Below, in pieces: positions 33,384 through 60,052 of a stretch of DNA of 64,000 nt. The stretch comes from an uncultured Acidimicrobiia bacterium. GTDB lineage: Bacteria > Actinomycetota > Acidimicrobiia > Spongiisociales > UBA5794. The DNA lies in the NCBI GenBank assembly GCA_963792895.1, contig CAWBYA010000004.1, positions 162,069 to 226,068 on the forward strand, read 5' to 3'. Within the stretch, counting starts at the first letter, position 1; the number at the start of each line of letters is the position of its first letter. Below the pieces are notes generated by a model. That model searched no databases. It was not told where the DNA came from and saw only the letters and a program-made list of their open reading frames with translations. Made by a program: the position numbers and the translations under genes.

Positions 33384-34049
33384 ATGACCGGGGTCATATT
33401 CACCATCGTTCTGGTCAATATGCTGCTGTTCACCAGCGTCGGCGTATGGGCGTCTGCAGACCGCTCGGCGCGACCCGGCGCCACGCATCAGAGCCTTGGC
33501 ATGGGCGCTCACCGCCGTGGCGGTGGCCCTTGTTCTCGGTGCCGCGACCCGCTTGGTCCTGCTGGCCGTATCTGTGGGTCGGGTCTCAGGCAGGGTCGGC
33601 GAGTTCCTCGGCTCAGGATGGCATCTCGTTCGATCTCTATCGGCAACTGCGCTCGGGCTCGGCGGCGTTGTGCTCATCCGCAAGATCGGCCCCCCTCTCC
33701 GGCGCTCGGAGCGGATCCTGCAAGCGCTCGGTGAGCGTTTCAGCACATCGGAGATCTCCGACTTCGACCTCACCGTGCGGGAATTGCAGGTGCTCGCCGT
33801 CATTGGAGCCGGATCGATCTCGGACCGCGCCATCGCTGACGAGCTGTTCATCGCGCCGGCGACCGCAGCCACCACGTCAAGAACATCTTGCGCAAGACCG
33901 GGCTCGCGAATCGTCGCGACCTGGTCCTGCTCATCGCCGCCAGCCCTGGTGAGGAAGGCAACGACCAAGTCGCACCGATGAGAGCGCGCCTGCTCGGGAC
34001 GTTGGCGACACGGAGAGCCGACGTCAGGCGCCCTACCGGATTCGGGTAG
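33384..34049 (+). CDS. Membrane-anchored LuxR-family regulator, frameshifted near 33482 and 33872
   Basis: Three hydrophobic segments, then LTVRELQVL...IADELFIAPATAA|HVKNILRKTG..NRRDL across frames. Confidence 0.7.
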
Positions 34050-34094
34050 CCAGGTTTACCGGCTTCCCGGTAGGCGAATACCTGGTTCCCGGTA
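34034..34094. promoter_or_regulatory. Three phased TACC-N7/8-GGTA inverted repeats
   Basis: Starts at 34034, 34057, 34079 (23 and 22 nt apart). Confidence 0.7.
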
Positions 34095-34123
34095 TCGACA
34101 GGGGCCGCCGAGCCCCGTCTAAT
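34095..34123 (+). promoter_or_regulatory. Putative sigma70-type promoter
   Basis: TCGACA (34095-34100), 17 nt, TCTAAT (34118-34123): one mismatch each to TTGACA/TATAAT. Confidence 0.6.
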
Positions 34124-34173
34124 ACGCACGGTCAGCCATCTTCGTGGTGGACACGGTCGGAGAGGAGATATCC

Positions 34174-34302
34174 ATGTCCAGGTTGAGGAGTGCGAGGTTC
34201 ACCGCCGTGTGGTTCGCATTGGGGCTTGTCGGCACACTCATATTGAGTTTGCAGCCGGCCCACGGCGTCGAGTTGGAGATTGCCCGGCTGACCGGGACGT
34301 GA
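34174..34302 (+). CDS. 42-aa small ORF resembling a signal peptide
   Basis: MSRLRSARFTAVWFALGLVGTLILSLQPAHGVELEIARLTGT; AGAGGAG SD upstream; below the ORF-track cutoff. Confidence 0.55.
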   Translation: MSRLRSARFTAVWFALGLVGTLILSLQPAHGVELEIARLTGT

Positions 34303-34388
34303 GTGCCTCCTCCGCTCGGCGGCGGAAGAGGCGCAATCGAATCGGTGGACGGGTGACGGCCAGAAGTACGCGCCACATGGGCAGGTGG

Positions 34389-34499
34389 CGGATGGGTAGG
34401 ACACGGATGGGTGGGACACGGATGGGTGGGACACGGATGGGTGGGAGACGGATGGGTGGGAGACGGATGGGTGGGGCACGGATGGGTGGGGCACGGATG
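34389..34499. repeat. 15-nt G-rich minisatellite, 7 full copies plus a partial
   Basis: Unit CGGATGGGT[A/G]GG[A/G][C/G]A at 34389, 34404, 34419, 34434, 34449, 34464, 34479. Confidence 0.95.
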
Positions 34500-35374
34500 A
34501 ACACGGTCATTCCAATGGCCTTGACGGGTGTGCTGGTCTCGATGGTGGCGTTCTCGCCGGCGGCCGTTGCCGCACCTCTGTCGGCGCCCGAGGTGTGGGT
34601 CGACTGCAGCCACGGCGGTGGAGGATGTGTCGGTCTGGCGGGCGACTTCGCCGCAGCCGATGGCTATGCGGCGACGCCGGCACACGTCACGGTTGTCGAC
34701 GTGGGCACCGGGGTCGCCACGGATGTCACGAGCGCGGCGTGCCGGGTTCGGAACACTGTCGACGGTGGGTCGAGCGTCCGGGTCCGCTGCATGCTCGATG
34801 GCCTCGCCATGGGTATCAGCGGTCCCGTGGTGCTTTCCGTGCTGCTCGATGGCGTGGTGGTGTGGACATCGCCGGAGGTTGCCGTGAAGTGCGCCGACGG
34901 TGTCGATGACGAGGCAGTGACGACCACGACCGTCGTCGAGTCCGATACGAGTCTTCCAGTCGGAGACGACACTCTTTTCAGCACTGAAGCGCCGGTCTCC
35001 GGAGGCGACGACGAGTCGCCGTCGGGCGGTGAGGACATCGTGACAGGTGAGGACGTCGTGACACTCGAGCTCCCGGATCCTGAGAGCCCAGTCGTGGAGT
35101 CGACCCCTGTTGGAAACGAGGCCGCCGACGCGGTGGAGGTCCCGGCCGAGCAGGTACCTGCTGTCATGCAACGATCCTGAGCTCGTCGATCAACGGCGCC
35201 ATTCGCCCTGCGGTGGCTGGGGCCGTGACGTCGGCCGAAACGAGTGTGCAGGTCGAGACGCTGCCGGTCACAGGGTTCTCGAGTGTCGTGGTTCTCATGG
35301 CGGGGGCAGGGATGCTCATTGCCGGCATCGCGCGTCAGATGGCAATCCGGCGGTGGGCCAACGCGCGGCCGTAG
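34497..35374 (+). CDS. LPXTG cell-wall-anchored surface protein, frameshifted near 35166
   Basis: Signal-like MALTGVLVSMVAFSPAAVA; 4-Cys domain; acidic Thr/Pro stalk; next frame gives LPVTG, hydrophobic stretch and IRRWANARP stop. Start uncertain. Confidence 0.7.
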
Positions 35375-58039: not shown

Positions 58040-60052
58040 ATGACTCAGCCGACGGGCGCGTCTGCACACACAATCTTCGATCGTCGGGGACCCGCCGCCT
58101 TCATGGTCGCGTCCCTCGCCATCGGCGTGCTGGTCGGTCTCGGAGCATCCGCCCTCGTCATCGGCGCCCACTTCATCGCGGACGTCGTCGGCAGTGTCGA
58201 TGACGACGGGGTGGGGCGGCTGATGCCGCTCTTTGCCGTGCCGCTCGGCCTCGTCGTTGCGTGGCTCATCGCACGGCGGTGGGGCCCGGGAATCGAAGGC
58301 GACGGCGTTCCCGAGACGATGGTCGGGATCTCGCTGCGAGGCGGATACCTGCCCGGCCGCATCGTCGGCGCCAAGCTCTCGGCAACGATGGCGACGCTGG
58401 GATTCGGGGGCTCGGCGGGACGGGAGGGCCCCATCGTGCAGATCGGGGGCACGATCGGTTCGGTGCTTGCCCGTCGCACGCGCTTCGGAGAGGATCAGGT
58501 GCGCAGCCTGATCGCGGCCGGTGCGGGTGCAGGCATTGGTGCGAGCTTCAATGCTCCCATCGCCGGGATGCTCTTTGCGCTCGAGGTGATCCTCGGCAAT
58601 TTCGCGATCCGGCACCTCAACGCAGTGGTCGTGGCCTCGGTGGCGGCGGCCGTCACAACGCGGCTGGCGATCGGCGAGGAACGGATCCTCTCGGCGCCGG
58701 CGCACACGCTTGGTTCTCCGACCGAGCTCATCTTGTACGCGGCGCTCGGCGTGCTCGCGGGGGTGGTCGCCGTCACGTTCCTTCGGTTTCTCGAGGCGCC
58801 TGAGCGAGCCGCCGCCCGGCTGGGAGGCGTGAGCCGCCCGCTGGTCGCCGGGCTGTTGATCGGAGCCGCCGGCATCATCGAGCCACGGGTGCTTGGCACG
58901 GGTCAGGACGTCGTGGCCCACCTGCTGCAGTTGCCGGCGGACAGTACCGAGCTCTGGTACGTGCTCCTTGCTCTCGTTGGCCTCAAGATCCTCGCTGTGA
59001 CGCTCACGCTCAATGGCGGCGGGTCCGGCGGCGCGTTCATGCCGAGCCTCTTCCTCGGTGCCAACCTCGGTGCTGCCCTCGCCCTCGTCGTTCAGCCACT
59101 GTGGGGGCTGTCGACGCTGCAGCCCGGGGCGTTTGCCGTCGTCGGTATGGCGGCGGCCTTCGCCGGTGTTGCCCGAGCTCCGCTCACGTCCATCATCATC
59201 GTGTTCGAAATCACGGGCGACTACGGGCTCGTGCTGCCGCTGATGCTCGCAACGTCCGTCGCAACGATGCTCGCCGAGCGGCTGGAGCCGAACAGCGCCT
59301 ACACGGCGCCACTGCGGAGGCGGGGTATCCACCTGCCGACCCGGGAAGATGTCGACCTGCTCGACACGGTGACCGTTGCCGATGTGATGTCCGGACCGGA
59401 CACGGTGTGTTCTCCCGACGTCACCGCAGCCGAGGCGAGCGCTCTCCTCGAGCGCACCCGGCACCACGGTATGCCGGTCGTGGAGGCCGGACACCTCGTC
59501 GGCATAGTGACCCTGTCCGATCTGGCGAAGGAGGGGGCGACAACGGTTGGCGACGTCATGACCCTCCGACCCATCACCGTGTCGCCCAGCCTCCCGGTGT
59601 CGGAGGCACTGGCGAGGATGGCCGCGCTCGACGTGGGGAGGTTGCCGGTCGTTGCTGAAGATCGGCCGGATGTCCTCCTCGGCATGTTTCGCAGGGACAG
59701 CGCCGTTGTTGCGTACGAGCGGGCCCTCGGTGCAACAACCGATCGCCGCCTGTCACGTGAGCGTCACGATGTTCGCGCTGCACCGAGGACGGCGTTCTTC
59801 GAGATCTGGATACCGCATGGCTCGCCGGTCAAGGGACGCAACGTGCGAAGCGTGGTGTGGCCCGACGACGTGACGCTCGTGTCGATTCGCCGTGGCTCCT
59901 CAGTTCTCATCCCGCACGGCGATACGACCCTCGAACCGGGCGACACGGTCACTGCCTATGGCTCGGCAGGAGCGAAGGCGCGAATGGAGGCGATTCTCGG
60001 GGTCGGCGGCGGGGGGCGGCAGCCAAACGATGCGCACGCCGCCGGTCGCTGA
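58040..60052 (+). CDS. CLC-family chloride channel/transporter with CBS pair and RCK_C domain
   Basis: GDGVP, GREGP, NAPIAG, GGAFMP; CBS HHGMPVV / GRLPVV; IRRG..LIPHGDT.L.PGD. Confidence 0.92.
   Translation: MTQPTGASAHTIFDRRGPAAFMVASLAIGVLVGLGASALVIGAHFIADVVGSVDDDGVGRLMPLFAVPLGLVVAWLIARRWGPGIEGDGVPETMVGISLRGGYLPGRIVGAKLSATMATLGFGGSAGREGPIVQIGGTIGSVLARRTRFGEDQVRSLIAAGAGAGIGASFNAPIAGMLFALEVILGNFAIRHLNAVVVASVAAAVTTRLAIGEERILSAPAHTLGSPTELILYAALGVLAGVVAVTFLRFLEAPERAAARLGGVSRPLVAGLLIGAAGIIEPRVLGTGQDVVAHLLQLPADSTELWYVLLALVGLKILAVTLTLNGGGSGGAFMPSLFLGANLGAALALVVQPLWGLSTLQPGAFAVVGMAAAFAGVARAPLTSIIIVFEITGDYGLVLPLMLATSVATMLAERLEPNSAYTAPLRRRGIHLPTREDVDLLDTVTVADVMSGPDTVCSPDVTAAEASALLERTRHHGMPVVEAGHLVGIVTLSDLAKEGATTVGDVMTLRPITVSPSLPVSEALARMAALDVGRLPVVAEDRPDVLLGMFRRDSAVVAYERALGATTDRRLSRERHDVRAAPRTAFFEIWIPHGSPVKGRNVRSVVWPDDVTLVSIRRGSSVLIPHGDTTLEPGDTVTAYGSAGAKARMEAILGVGGGGRQPNDAHAAGR

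Follow-up and report, generated by a model that had tools for sequence, protein, structure and literature searches.

A phased array of inverted repeats associated with a family of predicted membrane-anchored LuxR-type regulators stands beside a regulator pseudogene in an uncultured Acidimicrobiia bacterium

Which protein reads three closely spaced inverted repeats that lie directly upstream of a promoter, when a continuous reading of the neighbouring regulator gene requires three frames to be joined? The question arises in a 64-kb stretch of DNA (hereafter, the window) from an uncultured Acidimicrobiia bacterium of marine or sediment metagenomes, in which boxes of the form TACC-N7/8-GGTA stand between a LuxR-type gene and the genes for a short ORF and an LPXTG surface protein (Table 1). 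A preliminary description of this DNA had reported the three boxes, with start-to-start spacings of 23 nt (box 1 to box 2) and 22 nt (box 2 to box 3), and had placed the end of the third at 34094, immediately before TCGACA-N17-TCTAAT; both observations were confirmed in the sequence. The motif is found four times in the window against 0.19 expected, a number that none of 100 shuffles reached, and three of the four matches form the array at 34034–34094. The fourth, a TACC-N7-GGTA match (TACCGAGCTCTGGTA, 58945–58959), is single, lacks a phased partner, lies within a long ORF and is most likely due to chance. A REP, a MITE or another repeated or mobile element was ruled out, that one intragenic match being the sole other copy in the window.

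Table 1. Features of the regulator–array–target locus (positions in the window).
Feature	Position	Strand	Remarks
Membrane-anchored (3-TM) LuxR/NarL-type one-component regulator, pseudogene	33384..34049	+	68% identical to intact P0002
Extra G, frame shift after TM1	33452..33452	+	window-specific; L152 in frame; L153 and L154 carry a different indel
Loss of one C (ACCCAC to ACCAC)	33871..33875	+	recognition helix THVKNILRKTGL out of frame; common to all strains and assemblies of the species
Box 1, promoter-distal	34034..34048	+	TACCGGATTCGGGTA, 15 bp (7-1-7, N7); predicted centre about -89
Box 2	34057..34072	+	TACCGGCTTCCCGGTA, 16 bp (7-2-7, N8); predicted centre about -65.5
Box 3, promoter-proximal	34079..34094	+	TACCTGGTTCCCGGTA, 16 bp (N8); predicted centre about -43.5; abuts -35
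-35 element TCGACA	34095..34100	+	directly after box 3; register kept in 20 arrays
-10 element TCTAAT	34118..34123	+	17-nt spacer from -35; predicted TSS near 34130
sORF, 42 aa, signal-peptide-like	34174..34302	+	GAGGAG Shine-Dalgarno; first ORF after promoter; gene call in L152–L154
15-nt G-rich minisatellite	34377..34496	+	between sORF and LPXTG gene; 7 copies in window, 8 in L152 and L153
LPXTG (LPVTG) surface-protein gene	34497..35374	+	frameshifted after 35168 in window; intact in L152 (332 aa as called)

The outline of the boxes is that of a site for a NarL-type protein. As a dimer, the output domain of NarL recognises two inverted heptamers (TACYYMT) with 2 bp between them, the engineered site being TACCCCTAAAGGGGTA (PMC4549865); boxes 2 and 3 are 16 bp long with TACC/GGTA ends like those of this site, with an inner (G/C)G-N rather than YMT, and box 1 is a 7-1-7 variant. 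Across all boxes associated with the family described below, the half-site consensus is TACC-(G/C)-G. Perfect 6+6 palindromes account for only 15 of the 49 distinct boxes, and the two half-sites vary independently of one another, a pattern that fits the operator of a dimeric protein and not a conserved RNA stem.

A read-through translation of the window regulator led us to a family of proteins whose intact members, from MAGs of Acidimicrobiia and Actinomycetota, are about 190 residues long, at 38–68% identity. All carry PF00196, and both this profile and the predicted fold place them in the LuxR/GerE HTH superfamily; the recognition helix is nearly invariant (P-(A/S/T)-T-A-(A/G/R)-T-H-V-K-N-I-L-R-K-T-G-L). 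An AF2 model (pLDDT 86) has transmembrane (TM) helices at residues 2–29, 33–63 and 79–~105, with a short conserved outer loop (GW...F..S.W) of ~15 residues, and continues from TM3 through a linker helix into a four-helix GerE domain. Basic residues both in the TM1–TM2 loop and in the stretch following TM3 predict that the HTH lies on the cytoplasmic side, which would make these proteins members of the membrane-integrated one-component class, with TM helices and a cytoplasmic DNA-binding domain in one polypeptide. The family has no REC domain with a phospho-acceptor Asp, its residues 1–~105 being predicted as three TM helices, and no autoinducer-binding domain, PF00196 alone having been detected and the rest of the model being a TM bundle.

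By sequence, the closest solved relatives of the HTH are LiaR, VraR, ChrA and NarL (4WT0, E = 3.5e-12; VraR 5HEV and 4GVP), and the profile also matches GerE structures; the family HTH superposes on the NarL–DNA complex 1JE8 at 1.0–1.3 Å with 36–40% identity. For the TM domain the fold search gave no match; solved relatives exist for the HTH only. The family is small, with 80 representatives (clusters at 50% identity) at E ≤ 1e-30 among 1.84 billion, compared with 127,982 generic LuxR-HTH matches at E ≤ 0.001. A literature search, which is not exhaustive proof, returned no characterised membrane-anchored LuxR-type regulator, and transmembrane forms go unmentioned in a census of LuxR proteins from actinobacteria (PMC3466318). 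Paralogues are not rare: three MAGs each hold two members of the family on different contigs (L005 and L026, L009 and L029, L022 and L025).

If the boxes belong to this family, they should accompany its genes. We compared 148 loci (labelled L001 onwards); those that encode the family number 52 after removal of redundancy. Exact boxes number 79 in the 394 kb of loci with near-full-length family members and 10 in 420–430 kb around HTH-only genes of other LuxR families. Within the 52 non-redundant loci, the 32.6 kb near the regulator gene contain 44 boxes and the other 216.7 kb contain 11, so that boxes are enriched 27-fold by the gene (Poisson P ~3e-46), this co-localisation being correlative. 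Of the spacings between neighbouring boxes, 23 are of 22 nt, 5 more of 21–24 nt and a further 5 of 44–46 nt, the last being those in which the middle box is degenerate. The preliminary description had named conservation of the motif next to LuxR homologues in relatives as a check, and this enrichment, with its dominant 22-nt spacing, bears the expectation out. At least one exact box lies within -450 to +250 of the gene in 29 of the 44 well-flanked loci; the other 15 have no exact box near the gene, 5 of them having boxes further out.

The arrangement of the boxes is conserved along with their sequence. In the clade nearest the window, the regulator stop codon is followed by box 1 (15 bp), 7 nt, box 2, 7 nt and box 3; in the window itself the stop codon (34047–34049) overlaps box 1. 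Among relatives the distal box is usually a 15-mer and the left half of box 2 is often degenerate (TTCC or TCCC). The full layout of stop codon, box 1, box 2, box 3, -35, N17 and -10 recurs with homologues that are 38–83% identical, and three boxes at 22 nt are kept in two loci whose regulators are 38–40% identical (L028 and L032). Two loci, L010 and L017, separate the array from the end of the regulator gene: there the gene for the secreted protein has the inverse orientation at a distance of 1.5–2 kb from the regulator, and the array and promoter still precede that gene in the same orientation. The array thus moves with the secreted-protein gene, which indicates that it is part of the target promoter. 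The regulator gene itself is preceded by two boxes with 22-nt spacing in a different clade (L021, L088 and L091), which suggests autoregulation.

Single boxes occur as well. Many loci of a soil clade (L095, L096, L103, L110, L116, L128, L146 and others) have one exact 16-mer, TACCGGATGGCCGGTA, upstream of the regulator, set within a longer conserved stretch (..CAGTAC..GTGAA..) and not part of an array; a second soil clade likewise has a single box, TACCGGGCAGCCGGTA, and no array.

What follows box 3 is equally regular. An alignment of 20 independent arrays by the final base of their proximal boxes shows just two downstream peaks of information, one spanning +1 to +5 and the other +22 to +29. 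The first peak (T in 20/20, G in 15/20, A in 13/20 or C in 7/20, C in 14/20) corresponds to a -35 element and the second, with A at +25 and at +28 in 15/20 each, to a -10 element after a 17-nt spacer. This shared register supports a promoter in the window, with a predicted TSS near 34130 and boxes centred at about -43.5, -65.5 and -89. NarL activates napF and yeaR from 7-2-7 sites at -40 to -49 and -38 to -47 (PMC4549865). With the predicted centre of box 3 at -43.5 and the -35 and -10 in register across the 20 arrays, the locus would be a candidate class II-type, activator-dependent sigma-70 promoter, a kind in which the activator site is centred about -41 to -45; the -10 of the window, TCTAAT, has C at position 2, where 15 of 20 relatives have A. 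Because this normally invariant A is missing, a consensus promoter scan of the window did not call TCGACA-N17-TCTAAT. The description of this promoter as near-consensus was therefore overstated, while its position is backed by the 20 related arrays. A perfect 10-nt inverted repeat (GCCGCCGAGC at 34104–34113 and GCTCGGCGGC at 34314–34323, 200 nt apart) links the promoter spacer with a hairpin region after the sORF and may be a chance occurrence.

The regulator gene of the window is itself dead. Where relatives read gccACCCACgtc, encoding A-T-H-V of the recognition helix, the window reads gccACCACgtc (33868–33878) and has lost one C; the frameshift explains why the window copy matches Pfam GerE (PF00196) only over HTH positions 3–33 of 57, with 19.9 bits against a cut-off of 23.5. 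The sequence at this site is intact in relatives L001 and L012. Within the species, two other long contigs carry the identical HTH frameshift, and short-read contigs X1 and X2, which derive from a marine run of 2017 and a sediment run of 2024, show no indel relative to the window there. Assembly error as the source of the HTH frameshift is ruled out by this agreement between independent short-read contigs of different studies and the two long contigs. Further lesions differ between strains: the regulator of L152 has the HTH lesion only, and L153 and L154 carry a different indel around 33451–33453 together with a deletion at 33664 that is also present in X1–X3. The indels confined to the window, at 33452 and 35168, could themselves be assembly errors.

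A loss of C throughout the species, with strain-specific indels added to it, points to a pseudogene that was recently inactivated and is decaying neutrally, and not to assembly error or recoding. With its recognition helix out of frame, the adjacent gene cannot supply the protein that binds the boxes in this species, and the array in this organism is probably an orphan. The proposal that the adjacent membrane LuxR protein binds the boxes and activates the sORF/LPXTG transcript is thus right in kind for the family, as co-occurrence, phasing, promoter and surface-protein genes attest, and wrong for this genome, where the neighbouring regulator is dead across the species. The window contains no paralogue of the regulator within its 64 kb, and an intact paralogue elsewhere might possibly serve the array in trans; we prefer to regard the orphan array as the recent relic of a decaying regulon.

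Taken together, these patterns make it probable, in our judgement, that the array is the cognate operator of a family of LuxR/NarL-type proteins which lack a receiver domain, are anchored in the membrane and activate a surface-protein promoter, and that the copy in the window has been orphaned. We infer that each box, an inverted repeat of TACC(G/C)G in 7-1-7 or 7-2-7 form, would bind one HTH dimer in the manner of NarL 7-2-7 sites, and that the dimers would bind cooperatively. A repeat of 22–23 bp, about two helical turns, would set three membrane-tethered dimers on roughly one face of the DNA, an arrangement that proteins embedded in a membrane would naturally need. The proximal dimer may then contact RNA polymerase at -35; with box 3 ending where the -35 begins and the predicted centres lying at intervals upstream of it, activation is the most likely mode of action. 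The product would be a secreted or cell-surface (adhesin-like) protein, here represented by the sORF and the LPXTG gene, the latter the likely regulated target.

We also entertain, tentatively and as a rather doubtful extension, that the 22-bp phasing is itself a geometric need of a membrane-tethered activator: three membrane-embedded dimers would dock the adhesin-gene promoter onto the membrane, the TM bundle and its ~15-residue outer loop would convert a signal into transcription at the site of export, and the window would catch such a regulon just after the death of its regulator. Such a design, if true, would amount to a LuxR signalling architecture that lacks a receiver, has a defined operator code and has not been described before, seen here with its operator intact while regulator and target gather strain-specific indels.

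The same proteins at the same sites might instead act as repressors, three dimers beside the -35 blocking RNA polymerase until a signal arrives. Repression from 7-2-7 sites is known for NarL-type proteins, as at frdA (PMC4549865), box 3 directly adjoins the -35, and in many arrays the -35 is fairly good (T-G-A-C), so that an activator might be unneeded; yet none of the 20 arrays has a box over the -35/-10 spacer, the -10 or the predicted TSS, the sites reach upstream to about -96 in the usual layout of an activator, and the -35 hexamers of some arrays are poor (TTTCCC, TTGCTC), as is typical of activator-dependent promoters. Loss of a repressor should moreover de-repress its target, which in this species is instead also gaining frameshifts, and we consider repression unlikely. 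An objection to the family as binder might seem to lie in the array itself: all three boxes are perfect, and the 34034–34123 region is identical across the four assemblies of the species, despite the dead neighbouring gene. This could mean that another protein uses the boxes, such as a different NarL/LiaR-type response regulator encoded elsewhere, for which the membrane LuxR would be merely a frequent neighbour and the array here still in use, and the box outline is indeed that of a generic NarL 7-2-7 site. Overall strain divergence is only ~1%, however, so that identity of the region across strains says nothing about selection; the boxes track the membrane LuxR gene whether they lie downstream of it, upstream of it (L021, L088 and L091) or as single sites in the soil clades, and they are rare at the loci of other LuxR families. 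We regard this reading as quite improbable.

Two further readings would do without a DNA-binding partner or without a dead gene. Were the palindromes to act as RNA hairpins, as a stabiliser or terminator at the 3' end of the regulator mRNA or within a leader, one might point to the small hairpin that each box could form and to the folding of the region at -46 kcal/mol; the z-score of that fold is only -1.8, however, and 11 of 200 shuffles fold as well. A search of the region against Rfam gave no match, there is no T-tract, and half-sites change without compensation, it being the TACC/GGTA sequence that is constant and not the pairing. The array moreover lies upstream of a conserved promoter and in L010 and L017 goes with the target promoter, not with the regulator 3' end. 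On the fold statistics and the absence of compensatory change we rejected this reading, to which we give very little credence. Programmed -1 ribosomal frameshifting at ACC-ACG, by which the regulator would still be made and the adjacent gene would supply the binder, deserves scarcely any. The recognition helix, though out of frame, has kept its family character perfectly (HVKNILRKTGLANRRDL), and the species is fixed for the frameshift, but a recent inactivation would likewise leave downstream sequence intact, the site has no slippery heptamer, and the further indels at 33451–33453 and 33664 by which strains differ break the frame elsewhere, as expected of neutral decay. A family-specific operator array that has outlived its local regulator remains the reading we prefer.

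Set against known systems, the family combines known kinds, namely NarL-type operators and membrane-integrated one-component regulators. With Escherichia coli NarL it shares the four-helix GerE/LuxR-type HTH and a 16-bp inverted repeat with TACC...GGTA ends. Unlike NarL, it has neither receiver domain nor phosphorylation and begins with three TM helices, and its sites differ in an inner half-site of (G/C)G rather than YYMT, in a 7-1-7 distal box and in a fixed triple array with 22-bp phasing; its recognition-helix residues (TAATHVKN) presumably also differ from those of NarL. LiaR and VraR, response regulators of cell-envelope stress in Firmicutes, provide the closest solved HTHs by sequence and resemble the family in their envelope and surface functions; they also bind extended multi-site operators. 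Unlike the family, they are REC-domain response regulators under a separate kinase and are not membrane-integrated. LuxR and TraR place an HTH dimer on an inverted repeat that abuts or overlaps the -35 in a class II-like position, the lux box being centred near -42.5; the family differs in having no autoinducer-binding domain, a site of 15–16 bp rather than 18–20 bp, and three phased sites.

The likeness to ToxR and CadC, and also to BcrR, is one of functional class and not of homology, the DNA-binding fold being different from that of ToxR and CadC. In ToxR- and CadC-type activators, as predicted for the family, sensor, membrane anchor and DNA-binding domain are joined in one polypeptide and several sites upstream of the promoter tether the DNA to the membrane (PMC10629549, PMC5430869). 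ToxR and CadC differ from the family in having an N-terminal OmpR-type winged helix, one TM helix and a periplasmic sensor domain; the order in the family is reversed, with an N-terminal TM bundle, a C-terminal LuxR-type HTH and only the ~15-residue loop outside. Membrane-integrated one-component signalling, known mainly from ToxR and CadC, would in this way be extended to the LuxR/NarL HTH class. For an uncharacterised family in uncultured Acidimicrobiia, the comparison yields a testable operator—TACC(G/C)G half-sites in 7-1-7 or 7-2-7 form, three boxes with 22-bp phasing, the last ending at -36—and names a class of targets, surface and adhesin-like proteins. It also counsels caution in annotation: a perfect operator here accompanies a dead regulator, so that the cis-element alone does not imply active regulation.

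The proteins encoded downstream of family arrays have a basic N-terminus and a signal peptide, and several carry Ig-like (Big_13, Big_3_3) or HYR domains; in L005, the array is followed by an LPETG homologue of the window LPXTG protein at 32% identity. In the window, the LPXTG gene is followed by queG. A sister species (Acidimicrobiia UBA6912; L004, 4593–5170) has an intact regulator, the three-box array and the promoter, and is without the LPXTG gene, a short signal-peptide-like ORF standing alone between promoter and queG; similarity between this ORF and the window sORF, its positional analogue, is not significant. Units of the minisatellite vary between strains, and gene callers extend the LPXTG ORF through it, producing an N-terminal RMGG(T/A) repeat. 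Indels within the LPXTG gene are scattered among strains: an added C after 34801 in X3 only, a missing C after 35168 in the window only, and an added G after 35331 in L153, which fuses the LPXTG ORF to queG. Possible causes are decay once the regulator was lost, switching akin to phase variation and, in part, assembly error. The sorting signal is likewise polymorphic, an A/G difference at 35270 giving LPVTG in the window and LPVAG in L152, L153 and X1.
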